DNA of 16,008 nt from a virus. Its lineage: Duplodnaviria; Heunggongvirae; Uroviricota; Caudoviricetes. The stretch's first letter is position 1, and the number at the start of each line of letters is the position of its first letter. Below are positions 1 through 15,162 of the stretch, in pieces. Both the position numbers and the translations under genes were made by a program. Under the pieces are notes generated by a model that searched no databases, was not told where the DNA came from, and saw only the letters and a list, made by a program, of their open reading frames with translations. The DNA lies in the IMG/VR virus record IMGVR_UViG_2675903413_000007, positions 1-16,008 of that record. One strand, 5' to 3'.

Positions 1-1236
1 CTACGATAACCGCGCATTCAACATGGCTATCTGTTCGTCGTTCATGTCATCAATCCACATACCGTAAATTTCATACACCATCTGCGCAGTTTCATGCCCC
101 ATTTGGCTGGCTATAAATGCCGGGTTCGCTCCTGCCGTCAACAGCCAGCAGGCAAAAGTATGCCGCGTATGGTACGGATTACGGCGGCGAATACCAGCAC
201 GTTTTACTGCTGCATTCCACCTTGCCCCCAAACTGCTTACCGAGTAATAAGGTTTTTGTTTTCCGTTACACACCCTGGGCATGAAAACAAAATGCAGTTT
301 TTGCTTTTCGGTTCTGCCGTACTCCCGATGATAAAAGGTGATTTCGCTTTTGCGATGATGCCCGGTCAGTTTGTATTGCTCCTTCAGTGCTTCAAGAGCA
401 GGCTGCAGTAGTGTTACTGTTCGGATCCCGGCATTTGTTTTTGGGGGACCGAACATATCAAGTATCGTCAGGTTTCTTCTGACATTCACTATTCCCTTTT
501 CGAGATCCACATCCTCCCACGCCAGAGCTGCCAGTTCCCCGTGACGAAGTCCTGAGTAAACGGCAAATTTCCACAAGTTCTGGCTCTGTCCTTTTTCACT
601 TTCCATTAATGCATTGAATTCTGTTTTAGATAACGGATCAGGCTTTATTCTGTTTCGCTGTAATTTTTTTACTCCTTCAAATGGTTTAGTTGATATAAAT
701 CCCGACTGATACGCAAAACGCAACAGCGAACAGAGCAGGGCGATATAGTTATCAACTGTGCGCACGGTTCTTCCTTTTTTGTTGGATCTTGGATTATCCA
801 GGTAAAGCGTTTCTCCATGCAGCAGTTCATTCCGGTAGTTTAAGATATCGCTATAACGAATATGTGATATCGGGGTACTTTCACAAATTATTATTCTGAG
901 TGTTTTTAATTGTGATTTCGTTTTCTTCATTGTGTTTGTTGTTAACTCTGTCTCTTTAATTTTTGTCCAGATATCACAAAGCTCTCCGAACGTTTTTATG
1001 ACTCTCGTTGTCACCATTTTTGCCCCAGTGCTGGACTGGGGAAAACGTCTTAAATACTCAAATTCACCGGAGTTTATTTCATGAACTATCAGCGATCTTA
1101 AATTTCCGGCCTTTTTAATATTACTGTTTGTAATCTCCCAGCCTTTTAATGTTTCCCGACATCGTTTTCCTCGAAACATGAACCAGATGCGAATGTATCT
1201 ACCTCTAATCTCGACACCTGTTGGTAATTTAGACAT
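1..1236 (-). CDS. intR: Phage integrase, tyrosine recombinase (Rac prophage IntR-like), 411 aa
   Basis: Complete 411-aa ORF with ATG at 1236-1234 and stop at 3-1. Translation matches the Rac integrase as I recall it; the C-terminal region carries the tyrosine-recombinase R...HxxR...Y pattern. Position next to the xis gene is typical. Confidence 0.93.
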   Translation of the reverse strand: MSKLPTGVEIRGRYIRIWFMFRGKRCRETLKGWEITNSNIKKAGNLRSLIVHEINSGEFEYLRRFPQSSTGAKMVTTRVIKTFGELCDIWTKIKETELTTNTMKKTKSQLKTLRIIICESTPISHIRYSDILNYRNELLHGETLYLDNPRSNKKGRTVRTVDNYIALLCSLLRFAYQSGFISTKPFEGVKKLQRNRIKPDPLSKTEFNALMESEKGQSQNLWKFAVYSGLRHGELAALAWEDVDLEKGIVNVRRNLTILDMFGPPKTNAGIRTVTLLQPALEALKEQYKLTGHHRKSEITFYHREYGRTEKQKLHFVFMPRVCNGKQKPYYSVSSLGARWNAAVKRAGIRRRNPYHTRHTFACWLLTAGANPAFIASQMGHETAQMVYEIYGMWIDDMNDEQIAMLNARLS

Positions 1237-1237
1237 A

Positions 1238-1453
1238 TCATGAGTCTTTGATAAACTGATTTATCTTTGGATAGTTGTACCAGATAATCCCTCGTTTGCT
1301 GTCTGGCTTACCTAAAGGAGATACTCGTTTGAAGTGGAAGCCCTCCACCCAACAGTTCTGGCGGTATGCTTCAATTTGTCTGGCCCCCAGACCAGTGCGA
1401 AGCATCAGGCCGTATTCAACCATCCACTCTTCATTAAAGATTACTTGTGCCAT
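1238..1453 (-). CDS. xisR: Excisionase / DNA-binding protein (Rac XisR/YdaQ-like), 71 aa
   Basis: Small ORF immediately upstream of int on the same strand. ATG at 1453 is preceded by AGGTGA 5-6 nt upstream; the track start at 1477 is a TTG. Translation [35 protein letters not shown]... matches Rac YdaQ from memory. Confidence 0.82.
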
Positions 1454-1531
1454 CGCATCACCTCTGGCAGGCGCCAATGTTAGACTGAAATTGACGCCCG
1501 ATGTTGATTATTAATAATCAGCTATGAAGTT

Positions 1532-1741
1532 TTAATTTGAATACAATGCAATTCTCGAGGACTGAAGTTTCTCGCAATTAAAATTTATCAGTTTTACTTT
1601 CTGCTCTCTGGAAACGCCTGCTTCTTTTTTACCTGAGAGCATTTTTTCGCATTCTGATTTCGTTAGTTTAGATTTTGAATATCTTGTCCAGTTAGTAGGA
1701 GTGCCACCTTCCTTTTCAATAGTGGCGGTAATTTTATACAT
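1532..1741 (-). CDS. ydaC: Rac prophage small protein YdaC-like (DUF1187), 69 aa
   Basis: ORF MYKITATIEKEGGTPTNWTRYSKSKLTKSECEKMLSGKK... in the conserved Rac order between xisR and ralR. Start taken at the internal ATG (1741) that overlaps the ralR stop by 8 nt; the track ORF extends to 1813. Confidence 0.65.
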   Translation of the reverse strand: MYKITATIEKEGGTPTNWTRYSKSKLTKSECEKMLSGKKEAGVSREQKVKLINFNCEKLQSSRIALYSN

Positions 1742-1928
1742 GAACACCTCCATTATTATTTCCAGTGGTTCGTTTATTCCATCTTTCGAGTGCTTCTTTT
1801 TCACTTCCACCATAACCGGTTCGGGATTCGCATCCGTTACACTTCGCTCGGTAATATCCTGAAATGGCTTTCACCGTTACTGATGGACAACCACAAAATG
1901 GACATGGTTTAACATTGTCATATCTCAT
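1734..1928 (-). CDS. ralR: Restriction alleviation protein Lar/RalR, 64 aa
   Basis: Translation MRYDNVKPCPFCGCPSVTVKAISGYYRAKCNGCESRTGYGGSEKEALERWNKRTTGNNNGGVHV matches Rac RalR from memory, including the CxxC...CxxC pattern. Start taken at the third Met of the track ORF. Confidence 0.88.
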   Translation of the reverse strand: MRYDNVKPCPFCGCPSVTVKAISGYYRAKCNGCESRTGYGGSEKEALERWNKRTTGNNNGGVHV

Positions 1929-1984
1929 AATTTTTCTCATAAAAAATATTTCAAGTTGGCGGTGCATTACACCGCCAGGCTGAA

Positions 1985-2794
1985 TTATTCCTCTGAATTA
2001 TCGATTACACTGTATTCCCCGGTTAATACAGAGGAATCTGCAGGATCGATTGTCAGTGGTTCCTTTTCATCCATTGATACTGCACGCTGGATCTCAATTG
2101 ATACGGGCAGATATTTGAACAGGCGACGAATAGCCGTTTTCTTTGCCATTTCTTCCCAGTGAGTTACCCACGGCCCGTTATTACCAGCTTTACTCAGGCT
2201 GCGCACCAGCTCAATCTGTTTGCGCGTCATAACTTCAAACTGAGTACCTCCGTCTTTCAGTCTTGCGACAGCATAGACGTGGGTAACCGGGGCATCTTCG
2301 TTTTCTCCCGGGCGGTGTATTAACTTTTCATCAAGGCCAAATTCGAAGCTAAACTCGTCACCTTCACGGACAACACGGGCTGACAGGCTGGCGATTTGAC
2401 CAGAACGGCGAGCCAGATCAATCATGCCGCGATAGCCAATGATTAGCTGAACGTTCTTTTTACCGCTCTTTTCGTTTTTATTACCAAAAGGCAGTAAATA
2501 TGCATGACCGAGGGCGCTACCTGGCTCAAGTCCGAGCTGTGAACACTGTACGATCGCACTGACAAAACTCATAGTGTCACAGTTTCCTAACGCCGGAACT
2601 TTACGAATTTCTGTGGTGGCGATACGGATCATACGTTCAGCCGTCATATGGCGTGGAAGAGCTGCTGCCAGTTGCTCTTTCATTGATGGCTGGTTAATAA
2701 AACTAATCACGTCGCTATTTTTAACTGCTGCTGGTGCACGGTTTCCCTGAGTTTTTTGCAGATCGGCTTTTGCGATTGGTGGTTGCTTAGTCAT
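1985..2794 (-). CDS. recT: Recombinase RecT (single-strand annealing protein), 269 aa
   Basis: Translation from [21 protein letters not shown]... to ...[10 protein letters not shown] matches E. coli Rac RecT over its full length as recalled. Start at 2794 overlaps the upstream recE stop, as in K-12. Confidence 0.95.
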
Positions 2795-3479
2795 TTGCAT
2801 ATTCCTTAGCCCAGCGGGGCAGTGATAATGTCTTAATAGCTGGCCATTCATCGGTATTCAGGCAGTCAGACAGGGTTCGCAGATTGCGGTGATATTCCTG
2901 TTGACCTGCCAGTTTTGCTTCTTCGCCCATCATGAAAATTTCAACCGGATAACGTCCGCATTCAATAGTTGTGCTGGCAACCAGAAAAACGAAAGTTGGC
3001 TGCACTCCAAACTGTGCTTCATAACCGTCACTGTAGAATGCATCCTGAACGTGATAGCGGTAGTCGTAATAAGCGGTTTTGAATCGTTGAATATCCGCCG
3101 TAGTTTTCACGTCCATGATCCAGTGAAATTCAGGGATAATTTTGTCCGGACGGCACCGACACAAAATTCCTGTTTCAGGATCTTCCCAGTAAATTGATGA
3201 TTCAGCGTGTCCGGCGCTTTCAACAAGCCATTGCCCCAGCGGCAAAGCCATAACGCTTTGATACATGAGTTCAATTTTCCGGCCTTCTTCCGCAGTGATA
3301 ACCGTTTTTCCTGTGCTTGCGCATTCCATCAGAAACGCTTTCTCTTCTTCTTTTCCGGCGTTTGTACGGCGGTTAAATTCAGGTGCTACGATAAAGCGGT
3401 TACTGAATTCTTCCGGTTCAAGTACGGGAAGATGCTCCAGAGTGGCTTCGCTCTTTATTTTTTGTAACTGTCCTCGATA
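2787..3479 (-). pseudogene. recE: 5'-truncated recE (exonuclease VIII) remnant: C-terminal ~230 codons only, no start codon
   Basis: The minus-strand frame is open from the stop at 3512-3510 down to 2787 and translates to ...[54 protein letters not shown]...[15 protein letters not shown], which matches the RecE C-terminal nuclease domain. Full RecE is ~866 aa. The homology and GC-rich composition stop near 3480, where the AT-rich island begins. The only in-frame Met is at 3329. Confidence 0.85.
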
Positions 3480-3484
3480 ATTTT

Positions 3485-4264
3485 TTGTACATTGATGGTG
3501 ATAGCCGCATTACGAATGATGAGAACAAGCCGTTGGGTATTAAGGCTTTGATCGAGCGACTTTGCGCAGAGAATGGTCAAGAAACAGATCATGAGGATTT
3601 CGATTCATGGTACTGCTATGATGCTTTGAAAGCGCGTTTGCAACATATGCGTTGGTTTCAATTTTATGATGCTGTTGAGATTATCGGAGATCTATTAAGA
3701 AAAAGAGATGTAGAAAGAGGCCATACTTGGGGTAAGAAGGCATTAGAAGACATTACTTTTACATCATATCGTCAGAAATTGAACGAGTTATTCGCATCTC
3801 GAAATATTGACTGGAAAATGAATTCTGCTGGTAGGTTAGAAACACCACTACCAAATGAATTAGAACAAAAAATCGATGAAACTAACAACTTATTGCAAGA
3901 CCAGTTTGAACCTGCAAGGAGGCACTATGTGAAAGCCCGGGCTTTTGCATTAGGTGCGCATAAGGATCCAGAAAATTCCATAAAAGAATCAATAAGTGCA
4001 ATAGAAAGCATGTGTCGGACTTATTATCCTTCAGCCTCAACCTTGGGCGATGTATTAAAACTGATGAGAAAAGAAAACACTATCTCACCTATGCTTTTAA
4101 CGGTGATAGAGAAATTTTACGCTTATACAAATGCAGAGCCAGCAGTAAGACATGGTAGCAACAAGGTTTCTTCTGTCTTGGAATACGATGCTGAATTCGT
4201 GTTGCATATATCAGCAGCATTTATTAGAACAATAATACAAAGAAAAGCTGTTTTGGATAACTAA
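3485..4264 (+). CDS. Hypothetical protein, 259 aa as drawn; start uncertain (TTG, no RBS); possible Abi/HEPN-like C-terminal module
   Basis: Long AT-rich ORF beginning exactly at the recE junction. The first codon is TTG with no Shine-Dalgarno, and the frame is open upstream to 3407 inside the recE remnant, so the native N-terminus may be lost. Predicted helical protein; the C-terminal segment ...[31 protein letters not shown]... loosely resembles abortive-infection C-terminal (HEPN-type) modules. The similarity is weak and unverified. Confidence 0.5.
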
Positions 4265-4350
4265 GTCAGACTTACAGCCAACTGACTGTCTCTTATTATT
4301 CAAAACATAATAATGTTAGGTCCGCTTATCGCACATCAGGGACAACCATA

Positions 4351-4381
4351 CTCAAATCTCCCACATTGCAGGAGATTTGAG
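4351..4381. repeat. Perfect 11-bp inverted repeat (ctcaaatctcc / ggagatttgag) with 9-nt spacer between convergent island genes
   Basis: Read directly from the sequence. No flanking T- or A-tract, so it is not a canonical intrinsic terminator; it could be an attenuator or a protein-binding palindrome. Confidence 0.4.
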
Positions 4382-4504
4382 TGTGAACACGTCACCGTGG
4401 AACAAAGACTGTATCATCGGTCAAAAAAGACCTGGTTATCTAGCAAAAACTTTTAACATACCAACAAACTTAATTTATTTAAATGCTATTAATACAACTA
4501 ATGT

Positions 4505-5731
4505 TTAAAATATATATTTTATATCAACCCAATTTTTAGCATTATTGTCAACTAAAGTAACGCTATGTCCATGACTTGAATTTATAGCATCGATTACTGA
4601 TTGTGATGGGTGTCCATGTGAATGACCATCCGACTGAGCTATAAACAAAACATTATCAAAATCCGCAATTATTTTTTGATTGAAATTTAATTCCGAACCA
4701 TGATGAGGTAATGTCATCACCCTTACCGTTTTAATCACTTTTGAATAGAATTCAGCCCATTTATTATAATACAATGATGTATTAAGCTTTGAGTCACCTG
4801 TTAATAAAACAGATCTAATTCCTTTATCTCTATCAAAGAGAAAATGTCGCTCAACCCGACTATTTCTAAAACTAAACCACTCACGAGAAGGCTCATTAAC
4901 AATTTTCATCTCAGCTTCTTGATTATTAATAATCAAGAGATTGATTGATATTACATTATGATCGCCAGCAAGTTTTAAATAACACTCGCGTAATTTCTTT
5001 CTTTCCCCCGTGCTAGTTAATATTTTAAGCATTTTTTTCTTACTTAACTCAGTAAAACCATTTTCTATTAACTGCTGACTGAAAATTTCAATTTTCTTAC
5101 GTGAACGGGGCGGTATCCAAGAAATAAATGACATTAGTGTATCAGTTTTGTTTTCCCCAATCCTTTTAACCAACCAACGGTTACATTCAACATCTCCTTT
5201 GGAGTCAGATATTTTCATTGGTAAGCTTACAGCGCTACCCTTAATGTTTTCACTATTAAATATAGGAGGGTCAAAATTATCATCAATATCACTGGGGTAA
5301 AGCAAAGATATATCTGCCTCAGGCAACCTTGATTTTATCCATTTGACAGGATCAATGAGAAATTCCATAAAAAGACCTGACGTAGAATTAGAGCATAGCT
5401 CCGATGCAATTAAGTAATAGCTATCATGGATATCTAGGTATGGTAATACAACCTTGCGTATTTTGTTATCTACAAGCTGACATAAATGGTCAAATCCATT
5501 TATATGGTCTGAATCCAAATGAGAGATGTATACCACATCAATATATTTCTCATCAATATTAAAGAGAGATTTAGCCACATCCATCTCCCTACGCAACGCA
5601 TTTAATTGGTCACTTCCGCAGTCATACACATAACTGTAAAGCAAACTACCATCCCTTCCCCTCAGTCCGCCTAAACTAAATCCACCCTGGCCAACGGGAA
5701 ACAATCTTTTATGAAATACTTCTCCGCTCAT
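4505..5731 (-). CDS. Standalone ComEC/Rec2-type metallo-beta-lactamase-fold hydrolase (predicted nuclease), 408 aa
   Basis: ATG at 5731 is preceded by AAGAAGGA about 7 nt upstream. Ordered MBL motifs are visible: FPVGQGGFSL near the N-terminus, YDCGSD, ISHLDSDHINGF (HxDxDH variant, as in ComEC ISHADQDH), LPHHGSELN (ComEC HHGS motif) and SDGHSHGHPS (C-terminal GHP). A ~250-aa insertion lies between motif 2 and the HHGS motif. There are no transmembrane competence-channel segments. Very AT-rich. Confidence 0.75.
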   Translation of the reverse strand: MSGEVFHKRLFPVGQGGFSLGGLRGRDGSLLYSYVYDCGSDQLNALRREMDVAKSLFNIDEKYIDVVYISHLDSDHINGFDHLCQLVDNKIRKVVLPYLDIHDSYYLIASELCSNSTSGLFMEFLIDPVKWIKSRLPEADISLLYPSDIDDNFDPPIFNSENIKGSAVSLPMKISDSKGDVECNRWLVKRIGENKTDTLMSFISWIPPRSRKKIEIFSQQLIENGFTELSKKKMLKILTSTGERKKLRECYLKLAGDHNVISINLLIINNQEAEMKIVNEPSREWFSFRNSRVERHFLFDRDKGIRSVLLTGDSKLNTSLYYNKWAEFYSKVIKTVRVMTLPHHGSELNFNQKIIADFDNVLFIAQSDGHSHGHPSQSVIDAINSSHGHSVTLVDNNAKNWVDIKYIF

Positions 5732-6445
5732 ATATCCTTCTTACACCCTAACGTGATCATAAAATTGTCTTAAAGTTAAGTTTAAAGCTAAAAAGTCACA
5801 GCTCATTCCAACTCGTGAGCAATAGGAATGTATATTCAATCAGTTAGAGGATCAACCCGATTTTCTCTAATGAGATTTCGCAACGCAGTACGAACAGCAG
5901 CTACTTCTGCCATCTCATTAACAACCACACTGGACTACAATCCCCTAAGTTCTACAGACTGTAACCATATCCTCTTCACAGAAATAATCTGATTAATGCT
6001 GAAGGTCATCTTTCTCGACGCGAATGTATGACATAACAACCTCAGTTAATTATCTTTCGATAGAAAAATACCTTCACAAAAGGTTTAAGCAACCCATCAC
6101 AAGACAACACGCTAAGCTTGCCTTGTAAGCGTCCTGCTTAACCGAACAGTTCGCTTTCAGAGGATCTCCGGAGAACAGCTCCGATGCCTTATAAGGCCAA
6201 TGCTCGCTCCTCGCTCACTGCGGACCTAAGGTTTGGTCAGCTTGTTCGCACTCTGCCAAAAGCGGGAGTTACTCCCATTCGGTGTTAATCAATGTAGAGC
6301 AGATCAATCAACGACAAAGAAAATGAGAGGCATATCACTACTCATATGAAAATTATTGTAGTAAAGTGAGCCGTAAGTTCATCATTTATAAATCATATAG
6401 CATATATGTTATATCAATTTTAATTTAAATGGCAGAATAATTACC

Positions 6446-7150
6446 ATGGAAAAAATTAAAGCTCCTTGTCCATATTGTAAAGGTGAAAAAAATTGCCACA
6501 TAATAGGCCATAAAAAAAGAGAATGGAGTGAGGATGATGGGGGCAACTATTTTTGGGCTGAAAGTGAATACAAATTATTAGAGTGTATGGGGTGCGACGG
6601 AATATTTACATATATTAAATCCCGTCACAGTGAAGATTACGACATTGAAAGAGATGAGTCAGGCTATGATTGTATGGTATATAACTATCATATATCAACA
6701 TATCCCACTCAAGAGCAAGAAGAGATTAGACCAACTTGGTTTGGTGAGATATTAAACAAAGATCGTCAGCTGTATGTAATAATGAACGAAATGTACATCG
6801 CATTTCAAAATAAATCATTCATTTTAGCGGCGATTGGACTTAGAACTATTTTTGACAGAACAGTTGAGGTTCTAAATATTCATCCAGGATATACATTAGG
6901 CCAGAAGGTTGACATTCTTAAAGAGGAAGGTTTTATTGGGGAAACAGAAAGGAGCCAACTTAAAATTGTAACCGAAGCTGGCAACTCAGCTGCACACAGG
7001 ACATGGGCACCGAACGAAACTGAATTTAAATCGCTTTTGGTAATTATAGAAAATTTTGTAATGCGAACAATACTAAAAAATGAGGATATATTTAAGATTA
7101 CAGAAAAATTACCTGCGAAATATCCAAGACCTCCCAAAAAGCAAGAATAA
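6446..7150 (+). CDS. Zn-ribbon + DUF4145-like (HEPN-superfamily) protein, 234 aa
   Basis: The N-terminus has CPYC...(35 aa)...CMGC, a CxxC-CxxC zinc ribbon. The C-terminal ~100 aa contain AAIGLRTIFDRTVEVL and the motif TEAGNSAAHRTW, which matches the conserved GNxAAH signature of DUF4145 domains as I recall it. AT-rich; divergent from the MBL gene. Confidence 0.7.
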   Translation: MEKIKAPCPYCKGEKNCHIIGHKKREWSEDDGGNYFWAESEYKLLECMGCDGIFTYIKSRHSEDYDIERDESGYDCMVYNYHISTYPTQEQEEIRPTWFGEILNKDRQLYVIMNEMYIAFQNKSFILAAIGLRTIFDRTVEVLNIHPGYTLGQKVDILKEEGFIGETERSQLKIVTEAGNSAAHRTWAPNETEFKSLLVIIENFVMRTILKNEDIFKITEKLPAKYPRPPKKQE

Positions 7151-7559
7151 TGTACGTAAGTGTAAATAGAGCTAAGAGATTATATATTGACTCTGGTTAT
7201 CTCTATTAGCACATGCTTTTTGTAATGCCTTAACTGATTATTTAAACTCCTGTCAGCTTTTCGCTCAAAGCGGACTAAAGTGTTGGCTTGTGACTGACTT
7301 AGCGCATTTAAGGAAGTGGTGGTGGTGACGGGGTGTTGTGTCCCATTTCCACAGAATAAATCAGAGAAACTATAGCGGCTGTAATGGCAATCTATGGTCT
7401 TGCTATTGCTCTTATGGATCACCTTTCTGATTGATTTCATATTGGCGAGGTAACGGGAGTTAAGTAGAATAGCTGCGGGTGCTTGAGGCTGTCTGCCTCG
7501 GGCATGAACACCAAAGGCAGATAGAGAAAAGCCCCAGTTAACATTACGCGTCCGGCAAG

Positions 7560-7640
7560 ACGCTTAACATTAATCTGAGGCCACATCTATGCTTTGCATA
7601 CGTAGATTAGCCTCTTACCGACCAAAAGGTCAAGGAGAAG
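7560..7640 (-). ncRNA. sok: Expected Sok-type antisense RNA opposite the mok/hok leader (position approximate)
   Basis: Inferred from hok-family locus architecture only; no promoter or terminator for it was pinned down in the sequence. Confidence 0.25.
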
Positions 7641-7837
7641 CAGGCTATGAAGCAGCAAAAGGCGATGTTAATCACCCTGATCGTCATCTGTTTAACCGTT
7701 ATAGTGACGGTACTGGTAACGAGGAAAGACCTCTGCGAGGTACGAATCCGAACCGACCAGACGGAGGTCGCTGTCTTCACAGCTTACGAACTTGGGGAGT
7801 AAGAGGACCAGCGGGGAGAAATCCCCGCAACCTCTGA
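7589..7837 (+). CDS. mok: Mok-type overlapping reading frame (modulator of killing) of the hok locus
   Basis: An 82-codon ORF in a different frame that starts upstream of hok and fully overlaps it, which is the canonical mok arrangement. Confidence 0.5.
   Translation: MLCIRRLASYRPKGQGEAGYEAAKGDVNHPDRHLFNRYSDGTGNEERPLRGTNPNRPDGGRCLHSLRTWGVRGPAGRNPRNL
7647..7802 (+). CDS. hokD: Hok-family type I toxin (HokD/RelF-like membrane peptide), 51 aa
   Basis: ATG at 7647 with AAGGAGA about 10 nt upstream. Translation MKQQKAMLITLIVICLTVIVTVLVTRKDLCEVRIRTDQTEVAVFTAYELGE is near-identical to E. coli HokD/RelF and Gef/HokC as recalled. It has a single transmembrane helix and the conserved Cys. Confidence 0.9.
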   Translation: MKQQKAMLITLIVICLTVIVTVLVTRKDLCEVRIRTDQTEVAVFTAYELGE

Positions 7838-8265
7838 TGTATTATGCATCCTCAACGCAGCCACAGTTAACCTGATTGGCGGGTTTATTTCATCTGTAAA
7901 TATTTTTATAAAAATAATGCCCACGCACAGCATAAAACAAAAAGTATTACAGATAAAAAAGGAACGTAATGTGCAGATTTGTTGTTTTCCATATTTACTC
8001 ACCTTAATATGATTAATCCTGATAGGGTTGTTATTTCAGCGGTTTTCAAATGAGATATTATGGTGATCTGACAAATTTGCATAGCATTAAAATTTAATTT
8101 GTTTAACCACTTTTAATAATAAGCGTTGTTTGCATCCCAGCAATCTGTTGTTTGGTTTTTATTCCATTAAGGTGGGGGCTTTACACTGGAACCAGTTTAT
8201 TTATACTTTATACGTCAGCCTGAACAACTGGCATCTGCTGCACTGCGCCATCGAGAGATTGAGAA

Positions 8266-8865
8266 ATGGCGCATATACAACTGGTCAAACAAACTTCTTC
8301 TGGTTTACTTCTCCCGGCGACGCCGGAGAGTTGCGATTTTCTGCATCAAATCAAAATAGGTGAGTGGATACACGCAGACTTTAAGCGTGTGCGTAACTAC
8401 GCATTCCACAAGCGTTTTTTCAAACTCCTGCAACTGGGATTCGATTACTGGACTCCGGTCGGTGGGGCGATCACGCCTCGCGAACGAGAACTGCTGTCTG
8501 GTTTCGTTGATTACCTGTGCGAATCAGTTGGTCGGGAACACACGCCAGCCCTGAGTGATGCCGCAGAGCAATACCTTAACACCGTTGCGACTCGTAGAAC
8601 CCGGGATACGGCGTTGCTAAAGTCGTTTGAGGCTTTCCGCGAGTGGGTAACCATTCAGGCCGGATTTTACACCGAGCATATTTATCCGGACGGTAGCCGT
8701 GGGCGTCGGGCAAAATCCATCGCTTTTGCGAATATGGACGAAGTCGAGTTTCAGCAGGTTTATAAATCTGTACTGAATGTGCTGTGGAACTGGATTCTGT
8801 TCCGTAAATTCTCCTCTCAGGAGGAAGTTGAAAATGTGGCCGCACAACTACTGGAGTTTGCGTAA
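8266..8865 (+). CDS. Conserved lambdoid nin-region protein of unknown function, 199 aa
   Basis: GC-normal ORF whose stop overlaps the next start (TAATG at 8863-8867), i.e. translationally coupled to the YbcO-like gene. I do not recognise a specific family with certainty. Confidence 0.6.
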   Translation: MAHIQLVKQTSSGLLLPATPESCDFLHQIKIGEWIHADFKRVRNYAFHKRFFKLLQLGFDYWTPVGGAITPRERELLSGFVDYLCESVGREHTPALSDAAEQYLNTVATRRTRDTALLKSFEAFREWVTIQAGFYTEHIYPDGSRGRRAKSIAFANMDEVEFQQVYKSVLNVLWNWILFRKFSSQEEVENVAAQLLEFA

Positions 8866-9155
8866 TGGTGAATTTACGTAAAGCGGCTAAAGGCCAGATG
8901 TGCCAGATCAGAATCCCTGGCTACTGCAATCACAATCCCGAAACCTCTGTGCTGGCGCATTACAGGCTGGCGGGGACGTGCGGAACAGCGACAAAACCAC
9001 ACGATATGCAGGCGGCGATAGCCTGTAGCTCATGCCACGATCTAATCGACGGGCGGGTAAAAACCAGCGATTACACCAAAGAAGAATTGCGCCTGATGCA
9101 TGCTGAAGGGGTTTTTCGCACACAAGAAATCTGGAGAAAGAAAGGTCATTTATGA
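8865..9155 (+). CDS. YbcO-like nin-region protein (DUF1364, Zn-binding putative nuclease), 96 aa
   Basis: Translation MVNLRKAAKGQMCQIRIPGYCNHNPETSVLAHYRLAGTCGTATKPHDMQAAIACSSCHD... shows the Cys/His pattern and overall similarity to DLP12 YbcO as recalled. Its stop overlaps the next start (ATGA at 9152-9155). Confidence 0.7.
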   Translation: MVNLRKAAKGQMCQIRIPGYCNHNPETSVLAHYRLAGTCGTATKPHDMQAAIACSSCHDLIDGRVKTSDYTKEELRLMHAEGVFRTQEIWRKKGHL

Positions 9156-9694
9156 TTTACCCAACGAATACAGGAAAAAGCGGAGAACACCTTCGCCTCA
9201 CCACGCTGGAAAGTGTCTGGATTCAGGGAAAACTACGTATGTGGGGGCGCTGGTCGTATATTGGCGGTGGCAGGTCAGGGAATATGTTCAATCAGTTGTT
9301 GGCATCCAAAAAACTGACGAAAACAGCCATTAATGAAGCCCTGCGCAGAATGAAAAAAGCGGGAATAGAGAAAGCTGAGCTGGAAGCGTTTTTGCGAGAG
9401 ATGATCAACGGCAAGCAAAAGAGCTGGCTGGCGCATTGTACTGATGCAGAGGCGTTATGTATTGATCGAGTCATAAGTGAGGTGCTGGCAGAGCATCCAG
9501 GATTGATTTGCATTCTCCGGCAACGCTATGAAGGGCGGGGGATGACTAAGCGCAAAATGGCTGAATTGCTAAATGATGCACACCCAGAGTGGTGTTTTAG
9601 CACATGCGAAAAACGGATTGCTAATTGGTTAGCTGTTGCTGAGTATGCCCTATATATTCCCATGCGTGAATCATTTGCTGAGAAAATGGCTTGA
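9152..9694 (+). CDS. Putative late-gene antiterminator Q (non-lambda, phage 21/82-like type), 180 aa
   Basis: Last gene of the coupled nin-like operon, followed within ~80 bp by a strong intrinsic terminator (tR'-like) and further downstream by a phage-21-type lysis cassette. The call rests on position and context, not on a recognised motif. Confidence 0.5.
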   Translation: MIYPTNTGKSGEHLRLTTLESVWIQGKLRMWGRWSYIGGGRSGNMFNQLLASKKLTKTAINEALRRMKKAGIEKAELEAFLREMINGKQKSWLAHCTDAEALCIDRVISEVLAEHPGLICILRQRYEGRGMTKRKMAELLNDAHPEWCFSTCEKRIANWLAVAEYALYIPMRESFAEKMA

Positions 9695-9773
9695 TTTCTT
9701 ACGTATAAACTGCTTCAATTTTGCTATGCTTCGCAAAGCTGTATCGCGAGGCGGATTGCAGACATGGACATCG

Positions 9774-9803
9774 TAAAAAAACCGCTTAATGCGGTTTTTT
9801 TAC
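9774..9803 (+). terminator. Intrinsic terminator (tR'-like): aaaaaa-ACCGC-ttaat-GCGGT-ttttttt
   Basis: GC stem with 5-nt loop followed by a 7-T run; the upstream A-tract makes it potentially bidirectional. Located just after the Q-like gene. Confidence 0.7.
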
Positions 9804-10121
9804 GTCAGGAAAGCAGGGGAGAATGCTGCTAGTTGGGCAACTGGTCTTTCTGCTCCAAATTATAACAGAGACCAGTTATAGTTTCGGTGCTGTGTTTTTT
9901 TTACAATATTGTGATAACACATTGCTGGCGGGAGTTTTGATATTTCTTGGCAGGGGCTGATGATGCGTTATCCTGATGTCGTCAACTCATATAAAATGAG
10001 ATGAGAGATCATTGCAGGGTGGTTTGTAATTCGCTGTTTAGCGGGACAATATGTTGTCTGATACAAGACACCCGACGCCTCAGATTACTATAATAAAGAC
10101 GAAGCATCCTTTGTATTGACC

Positions 10122-10147
10122 AACCGCCTGTTTAGGCGGTTCTTTTT
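10122..10147 (+). terminator. Intrinsic terminator: AACCGCCT-gttt-AGGCGGTT-cttttt
   Basis: Perfect 8-bp stem and 4-nt loop followed by a T-rich tract, read directly from the sequence. Confidence 0.6.
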
Positions 10148-10679
10148 GGGCTGGTTTATTGTATGCCAAATGATTATTAAAAAGGTTGTGTTAATAACAA
10201 AATCCGAAATAATATGCCTGCATATTTTTATCTTGCTTATATTCTGCATATTGTGCATAGCAGGCTCATCCCTGCAATCAAAACTGTATGATGAGTATTT
10301 TTTGTTTTCCTTTTTTCCAGTCATCTGATGATGACCTGCTTCTTTTTAATCCGGATCGACATCAGTTTTTTAAGATAATTCCTGCGAGTTATATGCATAA
10401 ATACCACAAACTCCGCATTTTATGTGGTTGGGAGTTGCCGGGCGCGCAGTGAGTTTGCTAAGAAAACTCCTGCATGGTGAATCCCCCTGTGCGGTGGGGT
10501 GATACCATTAACCTTTTCTGTCGCCGACAGGTATCACGAACATTTTGTTCACCGGGAGGCACCCGGCACCATGCACTTCAATAGATTCTCTCCACATTAT
10601 GGATATTCTTTCAGAATATCCCACGCAGACTTTGTGTAAATGTTAACAAATGTGCGTTTTATTTGATCTGATTCGCTGT

Positions 10680-10709
10680 TTGAGCGTCCAAAACAACGGT
10701 ATATATAAT
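10680..10709 (+). promoter_or_regulatory. Candidate sigma70 promoter for the lipoprotein moron (-35 ttgagc, 18-bp spacer, -10 tataat)
   Basis: Consensus -10 hexamer TATAAT at 10704-10709 with a TTGAGC -35 at 10680-10685, about 30 bp upstream of the lipoprotein ATG and its GAGGA RBS. Confidence 0.4.
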
Positions 10710-10738
10710 CCTTTACTATATGACATATGTGAGGAAAA

Positions 10739-11167
10739 ATGGGTTTTCGTAGCGCATCAATTCTTACGTTGATTATTAGTGGGATTATTATCGGGTGCAC
10801 TGATGCTGTATCGACAAATTATCATGACCGTACATCATATTACTCCGATAAAGTAATAGAGACACAGTATGTGAGTTCATCTGAACGTACTTCTGATGTT
10901 AGTGAGGATATCCGTCTGTATGCCCATCAAATCAAGAGCGCCATCGAAAAACAGTTCGGGGATGCGAGTAAGTATTCAGGAAAAGAGTGTACACTGAGAA
11001 TGCATATGGCCCCGAATGGCCTTCTACTGGAGGTTAAAAGAGAAAGTGGAGACCTCGATTTATGTCGTGAAGCGATGAATGCGATAAAGAATGCTGATAT
11101 ACCTGCCCCCCCTTCGCCGGAAGTATATAAAGTATTTCAAAATGGGGTGCTGGATTTTAAACCCTGA
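10739..11167 (+). CDS. Lipoprotein with TolA domain III-like C-terminal domain, 142 aa
   Basis: Signal peptide with lipobox IIGC; GAGGA RBS. The C-terminal segment YAHQIKSAIEKQFGDASKYSGKECTLRMHMAPNGLLLEVKRESGDLDLCREAMNAIKNADIPAPPSPEVYKVFQNGVLDFKP aligns closely with the C-terminus of E. coli TolA (YAGQIKSAIESKFYDASSYAGKTCTLRIKLAPDGMLLDIKPEGGDPALCQAALAAAKLAKIPKPPSQAVYEVFKNAPLDFKP, from memory). Confidence 0.8.
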   Translation: MGFRSASILTLIISGIIIGCTDAVSTNYHDRTSYYSDKVIETQYVSSSERTSDVSEDIRLYAHQIKSAIEKQFGDASKYSGKECTLRMHMAPNGLLLEVKRESGDLDLCREAMNAIKNADIPAPPSPEVYKVFQNGVLDFKP

Positions 11168-11317
11168 TATTTATTGTTTTGTAATAAACGGTTTCGGCTT
11201 AGGTTTGTTCTGACACAGCTACGGCACTGAGCTAAATTTAGCGGATAGTCAGCTCTGAGCCAGTGGCGGACGTAACAACTACTATTGCTGAGATTTTAAT
11301 GGATTGAGGAGCAAGAA

Positions 11318-11713
11318 GTGGGATTAAAGAAAATCGTTATGTTGACTTTTTGGGTCGGTTTTGTTGCGGGATGCACACCTTTACACCCTTCAGATTGCCA
11401 CAAAACTACTGCTACAGGTAGTTGCAGTTCAGGACGCTGGGATGATCAGGATGAATGGGGGGCGCAAGCGCGGGGAATCAGAGCTGCAATTAATGCCAAA
11501 CTTGATGAGCCGCATAACTGGAAAGGGAAAAAATGCAGGTTGCATATGGAATTCTCTCAGGATGGCACGGCGTTAAAAATATCTACCAGTAACGGTGATA
11601 AAGCCTATTGCGAAGCGATAAAGTCCGCAGCTCATAAAGCCAAATTTCCGGCCTTCAACAATCCGGAAGTCTACAGAGATTTTCAGAAATCTGGCTTTGA
11701 CATGCGAGGTTAG
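11318..11713 (+). CDS. Second lipoprotein with TolA domain III-like C-terminal domain (divergent paralog), 131 aa
   Basis: GTG start at 11318 preceded by GAGGAG; lipobox VAGC. The C-terminus KCRLHMEFSQDGTALKISTSNGDKAYCEAIKSAAHKAKFPAFNNPEVYRDFQKSGFDMRG keeps the TolA-III pattern (C...L...DG.....GD...C.A...A.....P.....VY..F...). Confidence 0.75.
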   Translation: MGLKKIVMLTFWVGFVAGCTPLHPSDCHKTTATGSCSSGRWDDQDEWGAQARGIRAAINAKLDEPHNWKGKKCRLHMEFSQDGTALKISTSNGDKAYCEAIKSAAHKAKFPAFNNPEVYRDFQKSGFDMRG

Positions 11714-11838
11714 CTCTTCAATTACTATATCTCATTCATAGCAAACTGACAGATTTGATGATGTTCTATATACGAAACCTGTGATGTCAAGTCTGAGCTA
11801 ATACAAATAAACATAATATCAGAGAAATACATTTTATT

Positions 11839-11862
11839 AGCTCGCTACGGCGAGCTTTTTAT
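11839..11862 (+). terminator. Intrinsic terminator after the lipoprotein moron: AGCTCGC-tacg-GCGAGCT-ttttt
   Basis: Perfect 7-bp stem, 4-nt loop and T-tract, read directly from the sequence. Confidence 0.6.
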
Positions 11863-11964
11863 ATTGCATCGTCTCCAGCATATATATCAATTAAGGCTCT
11901 GATTGATGTGTCTGAAAGCCTACACATAATAACTATGCCATCCGTTCCGTGCGGAGGTGAGGCT

Positions 11965-12180
11965 ATGAAATCCATGGACAAAATTTCAACAGGCATTGCC
12001 TACGGCACCTCCGCAGGCAGTGCTGGCTACTGGTTTTTACAGTTGCTCGATAGAGTAACTCCGTCACAGTGGGCTGCAATCGGTGTGCTGGGTAGCCTGG
12101 TATTTGGCCTGCTGACGTACCTGACAAACCTTTATTTCAAGATTAAAGAAGATAAGCGCAAGGCTGCGAGAGGTGAATAA
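11965..12180 (+). CDS. Phage 21-type pinholin S (dual-start MKSM motif), 71 aa
   Basis: Translation [71 protein letters not shown] matches S21 as recalled. GGAGGTGA RBS upstream; stop overlaps the endolysin start (TAATG). The track ORF begins earlier, at 11908. Confidence 0.88.
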
Positions 12181-12677
12181 TGCCTCCATCATTACGAAAA
12201 GCCGTTGCTGCTGCTATTGGTGGCGGAGCAATTGCTATAGCATCAGTGTTAATCACTGGCCCAAGTGGTAACGATGGTCTGGAAGGTGTCAGCTACATAC
12301 CATACAAAGATATTGTTGGTGTATGGACCGTATGTCACGGGCATACAGGAAAAGACATCATGCTCGGTAAAACGTATACCAAAGCAGAATGCAAAGCACT
12401 CTTGAATAAAGACCTTGCCACTGTCGCCAGACAAATTAACCCATACATCGAAGTCGATATACCGGAAACAACGCGCGGCGCTCTTTACTCATTCGTTTAC
12501 AACGTGGGTGCTGGCAATTTCAGAACATCGACGCTTCTTCGCAAAATAAACCAGGGCGATATCAAAGGCGCATGTGATCAGTTACGTCGCTGGACATATG
12601 CTGGCGGTAAGCAATGGAAAGGTCTCATGACTCGTCGTGAGATTGAGCGTGAAATCTGTTTGTGGGGTCAGCAATGA
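12180..12677 (+). CDS. SAR endolysin (phage 21 R-like lysozyme, GH24), 165 aa
   Basis: N-terminal signal-anchor-release segment [18 protein letters not shown] followed by a T4-lysozyme-like catalytic region (LEG...KDI...WTV). Near-identical to the R21 sequence as recalled. Confidence 0.93.
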
Positions 12678-13138
12678 ACAGAGTAACCGCGATTATCTCC
12701 GCTCTGGTTATCTGCATCATCGTCTGCCTGTCATGGGCTGTTAATCATTACCGTGATAACGCCATTACCTATAAAGCCCAGCGCGACAAAAATGCCAAAG
12801 AACTGAAGCTGGCGAACGCGGCAATTACTGACATGCAGATGCGTCAGCGTGATGTTGCTGCGCTCGATGCAAAATACACGAAGGAGTTAGCTGATGCGAA
12901 AGCTGAAAATGATGTTCTGCGTGATGATGTTGCCGCTGGTCGTCGTCGGTTGCACATCAAAGCAGTCTGTCAGTCAGTGCGTGAAGCCACCACCGCCTCC
13001 GGCGTGGATAATGCAGCCTCCCCCCGACTGGCAGACACCGCTGAACGGGATTATTTCACCCTCCGGGAACGACTGGTAATGATGCAGGCCCAACTTGAAG
13101 GTGCTCAGCAATACATAACCGAGCAGTGTTTAAAGTAA
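12674..13138 (+). CDS. Inner-membrane spanin Rz (i-spanin)
   Basis: Translation [68 protein letters not shown]... matches lambda-type Rz. ATG overlaps the endolysin stop (ATGA). Confidence 0.93.
12894..13079 (+). CDS. Outer-membrane spanin Rz1 (o-spanin lipoprotein), embedded in Rz in the +1 frame
   Basis: Translation [52 protein letters not shown]... has lipobox VVGC and a proline-rich region; classic embedded Rz1. Confidence 0.9.
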
Positions 13139-13275
13139 AATCTTAACTACAATATGATTCATTTTGATGATTGTTTCATAAGGAACAGTGAAGTAAGATC
13201 TAAGAGGAGTTAAATTTTATACAGTATAATCATAATATTGCAGCAAGGTGGTTATAATTGAAAGAATATTTAGAT

Positions 13276-14733
13276 ATGAATACATCTCATGTAAGAGTTG
13301 TTACTCATATGTGTGGGTTCCTGGTTTGGCTCTATAGTCTTTCAATGTTGCCACCAATGGTTGTAGCATTGTTTTATAAAGAAAAAAGCCTGTTCGTTTT
13401 CTTTATAACTTTCGTTATATTTTTTTGCATTGGTGGCGGAGCGTGGTATACAACTAAGAAATCTGGCATTCAATTACGTACCCGTGATGGGTTTATTATA
13501 ATTGTAATGTTTTGGATTTTGTTTTCTGTTATTAGTGCATTCCCTTTATGGATTGACTCAGAACTTAATTTAACGTTCATTGATGCTCTGTTTGAAGGGG
13601 TTTCTGGAATAACAACAACAGGAGCAACTGTAATTGATGATGTTAGTTCATTACCTCGGGCATATTTGTACTATCGGTCACAGTTAAATTTTATAGGTGG
13701 TTTAGGAGTTATTGTTCTGGCGGTTGCTGTATTGCCATTATTGGGTATTGGTGGTGCAAAGCTTTATCAGTCAGAAATGCCGGGGCCATTTAAGGATGAC
13801 AAACTCACTCCCCGCCTGGCCGATACGTCACGGACACTGTGGATAACTTATTCTTTATTAGGTATTGCTTGTATTGTCTGTTATAGACTTGCAGGAATGC
13901 CTTTGTTTGATGCTATTTGTCACGGGATTTCCACAGTTTCGCTTGGTGGTTTCTCAACTCATAGCGAGAGTATCGGATATTTTAATAACTATTTGGTTGA
14001 GCTGGTGGCTGGTTCTTTTTCCCTGCTATCGGCTTTCAACTTCACTCTTTGGTATATTGTTATTAGCAGGAAAACGATAAAACCTTTAATCAGAGATATT
14101 GAACTTCGTTTCTTTCTGTTAATAGCCTTAGGGGTGATCATTGTTACCTCTTTCCAGGTCTGGCATATAGGTATGTATGACTTGCATGGAAGTTTTATTC
14201 ATTCGTTTTTTCTTGCCAGCTCCATGCTCACTGATAATGGTTTAGCTACGCAGGATTATGCAAGTTGGCCCACGCACACGATAGTGTTTTTGCTGTTGTC
14301 AAGTTTCTTTGGGGGATGTATAGGTTCAACTTGTGGTGGAATTAAGTCACTTCGATTTCTTATACTTTTCAAACAAAGCAAACACGAGATAAATCAGCTT
14401 TCTCATCCCAGAGCGTTGTTGAGTGTAAATGTAGGAGGGAAGATAGTTACAGATCGTGTAATGAGGTCTGTATGGAGTTTCTTTTTTCTTTATACACTCT
14501 TCACGGTGTTTTTTATACTGGTGTTAAATGGTATGGGATATGATTTTCTTACATCATTTGCAACAGTGGCTGCATGTATTAATAATATGGGATTAGGTTT
14601 TGGGGCTACTGCATCGTCATTCGGAGTGCTTAATGACATTGCAAAATGTTTAATGTGCATAGCTATGATTCTTGGTCGCCTTGAAATTTATCCTGTTATT
14701 ATATTGTTTTCAGGTTTTTTTTGGCGCTCCTAA
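13276..14733 (+). CDS. trkG: Potassium uptake protein TrkG (Trk system membrane subunit), 485 aa
   Basis: Translation from MNTSHVRVVTHMCGFLVWLYSL... matches Rac-encoded TrkG of E. coli K-12. Multi-pass membrane protein; AT-rich gene. The track ORF starts 18 nt earlier on a TTG. Confidence 0.93.
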   Translation: MNTSHVRVVTHMCGFLVWLYSLSMLPPMVVALFYKEKSLFVFFITFVIFFCIGGGAWYTTKKSGIQLRTRDGFIIIVMFWILFSVISAFPLWIDSELNLTFIDALFEGVSGITTTGATVIDDVSSLPRAYLYYRSQLNFIGGLGVIVLAVAVLPLLGIGGAKLYQSEMPGPFKDDKLTPRLADTSRTLWITYSLLGIACIVCYRLAGMPLFDAICHGISTVSLGGFSTHSESIGYFNNYLVELVAGSFSLLSAFNFTLWYIVISRKTIKPLIRDIELRFFLLIALGVIIVTSFQVWHIGMYDLHGSFIHSFFLASSMLTDNGLATQDYASWPTHTIVFLLLSSFFGGCIGSTCGGIKSLRFLILFKQSKHEINQLSHPRALLSVNVGGKIVTDRVMRSVWSFFFLYTLFTVFFILVLNGMGYDFLTSFATVAACINNMGLGFGATASSFGVLNDIAKCLMCIAMILGRLEIYPVIILFSGFFWRS

Positions 14734-14870
14734 TATATGGCTGATTTATAATTGTGAGTTTAATATTATGTTGACTCACTCATTGATCCAATACCTAACT
14801 TTACCAGCAACCCCTCCGTCCCCAGTAGCACTGGCTGCTGGGGTGCGTTTTATTCATAAAGCAAGGCTGT

Positions 14871-15161
14871 ATGAGCGAGAAATTAAAGATAGTCTATCGC
14901 CCATTACAAGAATTGTCACCGTATGCGCACAACGCCAGGACGCACAGCCCTGAGCAGGTGGCACAACTGGTAGAAAGTATTAAGCAATTCGGCTGGACTA
15001 ATCCGGTGCTGATTGACGAAAAGGGCGAAATTATTGCGGGTCACGGTCGTGTTATGGCGGCTGAAATGCTCAAAATGGATTCTGTTCCGGTCATTGTTCT
15101 GTCTGGCCTGACGGATGAGCAGAAAAAGGCGTACCGCCTGGCAGATACCTTCTGCCCGTAA
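14871..15161 (+). CDS. ynaK: ParB-like nuclease-domain protein (Rac YnaK-like), 96 aa
   Basis: Translation [67 protein letters not shown]... carries the ParB N-terminal domain signature ([11 protein letters not shown], resembling the ParB GxRRxxA box). It sits downstream of trkG as in K-12. Confidence 0.78.
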
Positions 15162-15162
15162 G

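Follow-up and report, generated by a model that had tools for sequence, protein, structure and literature searches.

RAZR (PD-T7-4) is a 219-aa abortive-infection RNase of Escherichia coli, encoded by a single gene; its specificity is set by a zinc-finger domain that binds ring-shaped proteins of phages (PMC13017515, PMC9519451). DUF4145 domains are also found in the defence proteins BxaP (PMC10799925) and Ishtar (10.64898/2026.07.06.735840), and DS-38 of DefensePredictor, a single E. coli protein that combines a zinc finger with a HEPN domain, has been validated as a defence system and is said to differ from PD-T7-4 in its zinc-finger domain (PMC13092281). AbiJ-type proteins join a variable N-terminal domain to a HEPN RNase (PMC3710099). 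Metallo-beta-lactamase (MBL)-fold proteins of defence systems such as Hachiman, AVAST and Lamassu were recently shown to be ComEC-like DNases made as gated proenzymes, whose active site is blocked by disordered insertions and becomes free once a trypsin-like partner protease has cleaved these (PMC12799240). We analyzed a 16,008-nt stretch of viral DNA (IMG/VR record IMGVR_UViG_2675903413_000007, positions 1 to 16,008; hereafter the window), a Rac prophage at ttcA, in which an island at 3424-7250 carries genes resembling members of these families. With a probability of roughly 0.6, we read the island as what is left, at the right-hand end, of an array of cassettes that were acquired independently, of which the two intact ones would encode anti-phage effectors. 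Prophage slots that gather anti-phage genes are already well known, and the island itself is an object of the expected kind. It holds two intact, unnamed single-gene candidates, namely a RAZR-like zinc-ribbon-HEPN protein without the canonical HEPN arginine and a ComEC-type MBL protein without the protease partner thought to be required in its defence relatives. The features of the island and its left edge are as follows.

2787-3425, minus strand: 3' remnant of recE (last ~212 codons), without start codon and without promoter
3423-3425: deletion junction with 3-bp microhomology TAC; 8,368 bp absent relative to E. coli GF31 (locus L002 4426-12793)
3424-4264, plus strand: 5'-truncated AbiJ-like gene (ORF 1 of the scan, 3485-4264, plus strand); the full-length allele has 297 aa (WP_021554375; GF31 and WGI31CT)
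4318-4432, plus strand: 115-bp relic of a tyrosine-recombinase gene (upstream region and first ~50 nt), with the half-motif TTAGGTCCGC at its start (from 4316)
4505-5731, minus strand: stand-alone MBL-fold metallo-hydrolase of 408 aa, ComEC-type, Pfam Lactamase_B (ORF 2 of the scan)
5732-6217, minus strand: non-coding leader of ~490 nt, present beside the MBL gene in each of five lineages (E. coli to Proteus), with conservation that ends sharply
6446-7150, plus strand: Cys4 zinc-ribbon plus DUF4145/HEPN protein of 234 aa (ORF 3 of the scan)

The MBL and zinc-ribbon-HEPN genes are self-contained cassettes, each with its own upstream region. In BLAST comparison, window 4488-6217 matched a Proteus prophage at 85% identity over a segment made up of just the MBL gene with its ~490-nt upstream region, and 6243-7246 matched Duffyella at 88% identity over a segment made up of just the DUF4145 gene with ~200 nt upstream. 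The ends of homology were sharp, at 4488/6217 for the MBL cassette and at 6243/7246 for the DUF4145 cassette. Lone homologues of the MBL gene, from a set of 39-90% identity, were located in a lambdoid prophage of Proteus, with the Q antiterminator on one side and the lysis genes on the other, in Serratia next to ogr of a P2-type prophage, in Enterobacter past the tail-fibre genes and in a CP4-like island; more distant homologues had changing neighbours and once adjoined Lamassu. Lone DUF4145 homologues were found in a Duffyella region resembling an integrative and conjugative element (ICE), on a plasmid-like contig, on a Yersinia plasmid, in E. coli EC11 past pinE and in the P2-like prophage of an O121 strain, where the gene lay between the tail-fibre-assembly and sheath genes at what we take to be the P2 Z/fun hotspot (PMC9122126). 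Outside a single E. coli island lineage, the two genes occurred together in none of the 11 contexts examined, and strains of the ET490 type kept the zinc-ribbon-HEPN gene without the MBL gene. An initial annotation of this stretch, made from the letters and their open reading frames (ORFs), had treated the three ORFs as a gene combination; the MBL and DUF4145 genes proved instead to be separate cassettes, with homology ending at 6217/6243 and each found alone in other elements. Its remark that it did not recognise the combination as a named system agrees with our searches of PADLOC and NCBIfam, in which no product matched a named system above threshold, and the nuclease- and Abi-like features that it saw correspond to AbiJ_NTD4 and PDC-S32, a ComEC-type MBL fold and DUF4145/HEPN.

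The cargo reached recE by deletion and not by replacement of the early region. As the reference we used GF31, the best-matching complete genome, which has the same left flank, cargo and right flank. Three-way alignment and BLAST matched window 1-3425 to GF31 locus 1001-4425 and window 3423-7374 to GF31 12791-16743; since these collinear segments overlap only by TAC, the window is short of 8,368 bp. Between recE and the cargo, GF31 has racC, ydaE, kilR, sieB, racR, ydaS, ydaT and DUF1627-gene remnants, a DUF977 gene and an anti-phage dGTPase gene. The deletion removed racC to racR, the replication genes and the dGTPase gene, the last of which is the first cassette of the array in intact relatives (L001 4177-5538; L002 10967-12328), where the cargo lies ~8 kb further right, past the replication genes. 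The initial annotation had listed racC, kilR, sieB, racR and ydaS onward as missing, and these are indeed absent from the window and present between the same flanks in GF31. It had concluded, however, that the island replaced the Rac early region, and this has to be revised, since resident cargo was brought to recE by the deletion at TAC. The recE remnant was 99.9% identical to GF31 recE as far as 3425, and its frame stays open by chance to 3476. We also searched with a 171-nt junction query (window 3340-3510, left half recE and right half AbiJ-like gene); it matched 1,733 genomes, and the junction of recE with the cargo was present in none of the 5,426 complete E. coli genomes. Independent truncations of recE were detected in other strains, with recE fused to ydaU (L006 4600-5763) or to a fragment of a major facilitator superfamily transporter gene (L007 3287-4453), and therefore decay of this region is common, with repeated loss of the early region via different deletions.

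In composition and layout the island was largely as first described. The GC content of 3480-7150 was 0.363, as against 0.469 in the recT-recE flank and 0.45 in the flank at 7370-13050, and 3424-7250 was the lowest-GC part of the window (36% vs 45-47% in the flanks), with the lowest-GC 3.7-kb segment of the whole sequence starting at 3601. The composition break is thus real; low GC is not confined to the island within the window, as trkG has a GC content of 0.378. All three ORFs were recovered in the convergent, then divergent arrangement that had been noted. The left break had been placed near 3480, and its abruptness was confirmed, but recE homology stops at 3425, ~55 nt further left. On the right, BLAST homology of the backbone to other Rac-type prophages began at 7252-7258, and prophage sequence was back at ~7250-7370, just upstream of sok, in line with the expected return at hok. 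The refined edges of the island are therefore 3423/3424 on the left and ~7250 on the right. Between 3300 and 7900, predicted promoters and terminators were no more numerous than in shuffled sequence.

In Rac-type lambdoid prophages, the slot occupied by the cargo follows the DUF977 gene of the replication module and extends to the hok/nin region (hok/DUF1367). The order in intact relatives was dGTPase, AbiJ-like gene, integrase relic, MBL gene and zinc-ribbon-HEPN gene. Across related prophages the content of the slot varied as follows.

dGTPase gene plus the island of the window
DUF262 protein plus TPR protein
IetA/IetS (annotated iteA/iteS)
other unknown genes plus a 200-aa tyrosine recombinase
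almost nothing (empty or deleted)

One backbone slot thus held varied cargo, with the dGTPase, IetA/IetS and the DUF262 protein as known defence systems among it, as in a prophage hotspot. The island was rare: at least 80% of 3424-7400 was present in 9 of the 5,426 complete E. coli genomes, the MBL cassette in 10-13 and the DUF4145 cassette in 14 of them. The proposal of horizontally acquired defence cargo in the initial annotation stood as far as rare accessory cargo in a slot with known defence systems elsewhere is concerned; the defence role itself is one that we infer. The corrected reading, with a deletion and independent cassettes, alters the choice of constructs that are worth testing.

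The AbiJ-like gene has lost its promoter, its start codon and its first 18 codons, the deletion having fused mid-recE to codon 18. The frame is closed by a stop 6 codons ahead of the junction, and translation could begin no earlier than at a TTG at codon 39. Because the promoter, start codon and 18 codons are gone, the copy in the window is probably a pseudogene. The full-length allele (L001 5949-6842) matched Pfam AbiJ_NTD4 (E 3.8e-8, 34.4 bits, cut-off 34) and, end to end over residues 1-291, the PADLOC candidate PDC-S32 (E 1.6e-33), while its C-terminal domain had no Pfam match. To our knowledge, PDC-S32 is a candidate that has had no test so far. The adjoining relic was 92-95% identical to the matching part of a 200-aa recombinase gene found in ~800 of the 5,426 E. 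coli genomes, whose full product matched Pfam Phage_integrase at E 2e-17. The intact gene sometimes occupies the same prophage slot (L003 6066-6668; L004 6054-6656). The cargo beside it varies and includes, in one case, a gene for a CBS-domain protein.

The MBL protein has the fold and the motif of the ComEC branch. Across 82 homologues, down to 23% identity, H71, D75, H76, D313, H343, H344 and H374 were invariant and D73 nearly so, giving a metal motif S70-H71-L72-D73-S74-D75-H76 of the H-x-D-x-D-H type. An AlphaFold2 model (predicted local distance difference test, pLDDT, 87.8) gave one confident solved match in Foldseek, the ComEC beta-lactamase-like domain 9ic4 (E 6.7e-10, probability 1.00, target TM-score 0.71). 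PADLOC hits, to LmuA, RTasMBL, Avs1a and PDC-M48B, were partial, covering the C-terminal 90 residues with none stronger than E 2e-12, and the NCBIfam scores of 31 bits for Avs1a (cut-off 420) and 23.6 bits for 6A-MBL (cut-off 220) place the protein outside these families. Codon positions 1 and 2 of the gene were only slightly more conserved than position 3, which fits a fast-evolving protein. We found no trypsin- or caspase-like protease fused to a sensor beside the gene, either in the window or in 8 homologue contexts. From the modelled fold, the protein is probably a metal-dependent DNase of the ComEC type. As an effector it would be inactive until infection, and two low-confidence insertions may gate it as in HamM and Avs1. 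The low-confidence segments of the model lie at residues ~155-172 and 282-294 and recall the two active-site-blocking insertions of HamM. A counter-defence role like that of Apyc1 was considered and set aside, as homologues gave only faint sub-threshold matches.

The leader of the MBL gene, which may be a promoter region, a long 5' UTR or something else, was examined for a functional RNA or a small ORF, and both were rejected. It had no Rfam match and no ORF conserved across the lineages. A 30-codon frame was open in all lineages, but all 14 of the 14 codon differences between E. coli and Proteus were non-synonymous and the start codon was not conserved. RNAalifold gave a covariation term of +0.36 and only 4 compensatory pairs, which is no covariation support. 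With none of these signals and a divergence at about the third-codon-position (synonymous) rate, there is no evidence of extra constraint on the leader.

The zinc-ribbon-HEPN protein matched Pfam DUF4145 at E 3.2e-11. A full HMMER search placed it in a family of 2,723 representative clusters; E was <=1e-30 for 280 of these, and among the matches listed the top hits covered nearly the whole profile. In 92 aligned relatives C8, C47, R133 and H184 were invariant, C11 and C50 were kept in 91 and R185 and D137 in 87. The N-terminal domain was beta-rich and modelled with pLDDT >95; with ~86 residues and seven strands it is larger than that of RAZR. We judge by analogy that the protein is probably a RAZR-like variant with the same general mode of action, and probably an abortive-infection RNase. 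As in RAZR, the variable zinc ribbon would bind a phage protein, upon which the HEPN domain (R133, H184) would cut RNA and halt translation. Identity with RAZR itself was rejected on the lack of a PADLOC or PDB match, and identity with DS-38 was set aside on its description (WP_001313577.1, ~366 aa, a different protein).

Taking the two intact genes together, we infer from their resemblance to known systems that both encode single-gene anti-phage effectors of the abortive-infection type. Several results weigh against this and against the array of defence cassettes. Neither protein scored above a PADLOC or NCBIfam defence-model threshold, and tblastn against 50,697 deposited phage genomes found no relative of either. 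The MBL family is without a conserved partner, which leaves its regulation unexplained. In the zinc-ribbon-HEPN family the canonical arginine of the HEPN Rx4-6H motif is absent, position 176 (-8 from H184) being T, I or V in 85 of the 92 sequences, and RAZR (chains 9Y9C/9Y6U) was not recovered in PDB sequence, profile or fold searches. No more than 6 of 20 sampled proteins bracketed by the hairpin motif described below matched known defence models. The two genes are also nearly always together in E. coli, as one near-identical island lineage, and because it is a single lineage this linkage is uninformative. The same lineage accounts for the 9-10 E. coli genomes in which all three ORFs co-occur; with their adjacency and uniformly low GC, this co-occurrence would speak for one multi-gene defence system gained as a unit. 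We hold such a system to be most improbable and regard it as mostly refuted by the genomic contexts and homology breakpoints: the MBL and zinc-ribbon-HEPN genes were separate in 11 of 11 outside contexts with breaks between them at 6217/6243, the ET490-type strains hold one without the other, the first gene is truncated in the window, and the two intact genes are on different strands and hence form no operon.

It is unlikely, in our estimate, that the cargo consists of prophage morons with a non-defence role, such as an MBL protein acting as an Apyc1-like immune-nucleotide phosphodiesterase, or either gene aiding the prophage life cycle. Some MBL homologues did match Pfam Anti-Pycsar_Apyc1 faintly (E 0.03, 14 bits vs a cut-off of 50), non-defence morons also occupy prophage cargo slots, and PHROGs labels the zinc-ribbon-HEPN family only as 'DNA binding protein'. 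Yet the MBL motif and the sole confident solved match, a ComEC nuclease domain, are of the ComEC type, the PADLOC similarity points to MBL nucleases of defence systems, a HEPN fold with an invariant histidine and a sensor-like variable N-terminal domain fits known Abi effectors (PMC13017515, PMC3710099), and the slot neighbours are defence genes. Inert debris of a decaying prophage, with ORFs unexpressed or non-functional, would be in keeping with the heavy deletion of an element that lacks repressor, replication and early genes, with one of three ORFs truncated beside an integrase relic and with the independent recE truncations in other strains. We consider it distinctly unlikely, since the MBL and zinc-ribbon-HEPN ORFs are full length and keep all conserved catalytic and zinc-binding residues, their upstream regions are retained and travel with them between elements, and the MBL gene is more conserved at codon positions 1 and 2 than at position 3.

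A short hairpin motif was present at all of the cassette junctions. It was first noticed as a perfect 10-bp inverted repeat, TTAGGTCCGC, at 4316-4325 and 6220-6229. The motif reads GGTCCGC-N3-GAGCGAGGAGCGGAC, with a second loop variant GTGCCAGGA, a stem of 6-10 bp and a total length of ~25-30 nt; its core is GTCCGC-N3-G(A/T)GC(C/G)AGGAGCGGAC. We built a profile from unrelated viral contigs and scanned the window with nhmmer, which together with inspection by eye gave the following copies.

4316-4327, plus strand: half-copy at the start of the integrase relic (or 4318-4327)
6202-6229, minus strand: copy (GGTCCGCAGTGAGCGAGGAGCG...), nhmmer 6205-6227, E 8e-4; outer end of the MBL cassette, at the 6217 breakpoint
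6243-6267, plus strand: degenerate copy found by eye, under the nhmmer threshold; aligns with L013 5797-5824 and L019 5464-5490; start of the DUF4145 cassette
7258-7280, minus strand: partial copy, nhmmer 7261-7276, E 7e-3; right edge of the slot
11245-11273, plus strand: copy, nhmmer E 0.03; between TolA-like ORFs 10739-11167 and 11318-11713

All copies inside the island were <=15 nt from homology breakpoints mapped independently by BLAST. The copy at 6243-6267 is 15 nt from that at 6202-6229, and a (-,+) junction spacing of 13-22 nt recurs elsewhere. At the place of the right-edge copy, L003 and L007 have full copies. Intact relatives have a (+) motif after the DUF977 gene and a (-) motif before hok, and in relatives further copies lie between the dGTPase and AbiJ-like genes and between the DUF262 and TPR genes. 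The copy at 11245-11273 suggests a second small cargo cassette outside the island, in the late region. Copies in other loci were located at L001 5796-5823; L003 2845-2872, 4017-4089 and 8230-8258; L005 10639-10667; and L019 4182-4211, 5464-5535 and 7565-7592.

Scans for the exact pattern gave at least 120 viral contigs with a match and, in the genome collection, at least 120 matching stretches of DNA, and the genome hits were almost all Enterobacterales. Although ORFs of at least 150 aa make up 62% of bases, only 0 of 109 and 12 of 183 copies in the two sets fell inside them. Close pairs were (-,+) in 22 of 22 cases with a spacing of 11-22 nt, while the commonest distant pair was (+,-) and enclosed 0.4-5 kb. 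The 6 of 20 sampled bracketed proteins with PADLOC matches were assigned to Old, PtuA, Hp1, Hp2, AbiEii and PycC, so that the bracketed cargo takes in genes of Old, Septu, AbiE and Pycsar. No Rfam family matched the motif, and the literature searched yielded nothing relevant on the motif sequence or on hairpin-flanked defence cassettes. We considered the 200-aa tyrosine recombinase as the obligatory cassette recombinase and rejected it, because it was present in only 4 of 120 motif-bearing viral loci. As a separate observation, in the Qin prophage of K-12 MG1655 (L145) motif copies at 15979-16001 (+) and 16969-16999 (-) bracket flxA beside relBE-hokD (record 1645978-1646998) and are unannotated; since one copy is inside an annotated ORF, ydfV, that ORF may be spurious.

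We read the motif as a cassette-boundary element, for which a recombination substrate, an insulator or terminator, and a REP-like (repetitive extragenic palindromic) repeat are the options. That it is only a terminator or insulator, or a REP-like selfish repeat of intergenic DNA with no part in exchange, is a serious possibility, if a minority one. The motif is intergenic, usually 60-80 nt past a co-oriented gene, forms a stable hairpin and occurs in inverted pairs. Such pairs resemble REP doublets. On the other hand, no T-run follows the stem, the loop is conserved as strongly as the stem, which terminators do not need, all island copies coincide with independently mapped homology breakpoints, and inverted copies enclose 0.4-5 kb of cargo. 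In the reading that we favour, the hairpin repeats would serve as recombination linkers or as sites for cassette exchange. A more far-reaching reading, which we regard as less likely than not, is that cassettes are exchanged at the motif throughout the Enterobacterales, in a system in which 0.4-5 kb of cargo between inverted copies, defence genes included, is shuffled among lambdoid and P2-like prophage, ICE and CP4-type hotspots; within such a system the stand-alone MBL and zinc-ribbon-HEPN proteins would be new single-gene defence systems, and the orphan MBL nuclease, if gated, might be activated by a protease of the phage or the host in place of a dedicated partner. If the motif is a recombination substrate, it would explain in concrete terms how defence genes are swapped rapidly between mobile elements, which current papers describe without explaining, and would offer a simple sequence handle for new defence cargo.

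The rest of the window is ordinary Rac backbone in the following features.

Left backbone: intR, xisR, rcbA, ralR/RalA, recT and the recE 3' end
1557-1735, plus strand: RalA antitoxin small RNA opposite ralR (Rfam, 225 bits)
7477-7802, plus strand: sok/hokD locus, the first backbone feature past the cargo; sok 7477-7652 (Rfam RF01794, 105 bits), hokD 7647-7802 (GF31 annotation)
10442-10628, plus strand: STnc100, in the late region (Rfam, 86.6 bits)
Right backbone: hokD/sok, nin-type genes, lysis genes and trkG

Compared with RAZR, the zinc-ribbon-HEPN protein is likewise the product of a single gene (234 aa vs 219 aa), in which a linker joins an N-terminal Cys4 zinc ribbon to a C-terminal DUF4145/HEPN domain that has an essential histidine; both occur on mobile elements and in both families the N-terminal domain is the variable part. 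They differ in the catalytic arginine, since R146 of RAZR lies 8 residues before H154 and has no counterpart in the zinc-ribbon-HEPN protein, where R133 and R185 are conserved instead, and neither the protein nor its 91 relatives matched the PADLOC RAZR model. With DS-38 it shares the arrangement of an E. coli single protein with a zinc finger and a HEPN domain. The full-length AbiJ-like allele has the AbiJ_NTD4 domain and the end-to-end PDC-S32 match, whereas the copy in the window is 5'-truncated, without a start codon, and is not an intact gene. The MBL protein shares the ComEC-like fold and metal-binding motifs with the protease-gated nucleases of Hachiman (HamM), AVAST type 1, Lamassu and DRT systems (PMC12799240, 10.1101/2025.09.03.673762). 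The MBL-type LmuA, RTasMBL and Avs1a of PADLOC are its best defence hits, and its model resembles the gated nucleases in having low-confidence insertions relative to the ComEC domain. Unlike them, it has no adjacent protease or sensor gene in 8 contexts, scores far under the cut-offs and has an extra insert of ~150 residues.

As in the published defence hotspots of temperate phages, a fixed backbone slot holds fast-swapped cargo of mostly one or a few genes, and a homologue of the zinc-ribbon-HEPN protein is present in a P2-like prophage between tail-fibre-assembly and sheath genes. Here, in contrast, the phage is of the Rac/lambdoid type, the slot extends from DUF977 to hok and several cassettes are stacked; term searches of the papers on such hotspots returned no mention of the boundary motif. 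Integron attC hairpins and the promoter-early stem-loops (PeSLs) of T4-type phages are short conserved hairpins at the ends of exchangeable cassettes. The island differs from integrons in that it has no IntI-type integrase or attI, its only trace of the Phage_integrase family being the 115-bp relic, and it cannot be classed as one; the motif sequence is presumably unlike attC. It differs from the PeSLs in that the motif is not a unit of promoter plus stem-loop. The motif is nevertheless, like both, a short conserved hairpin at cassette ends, and if the exchange-site reading is true it would have, in temperate elements, a function analogous to that of integron attC and T4 PeSLs.

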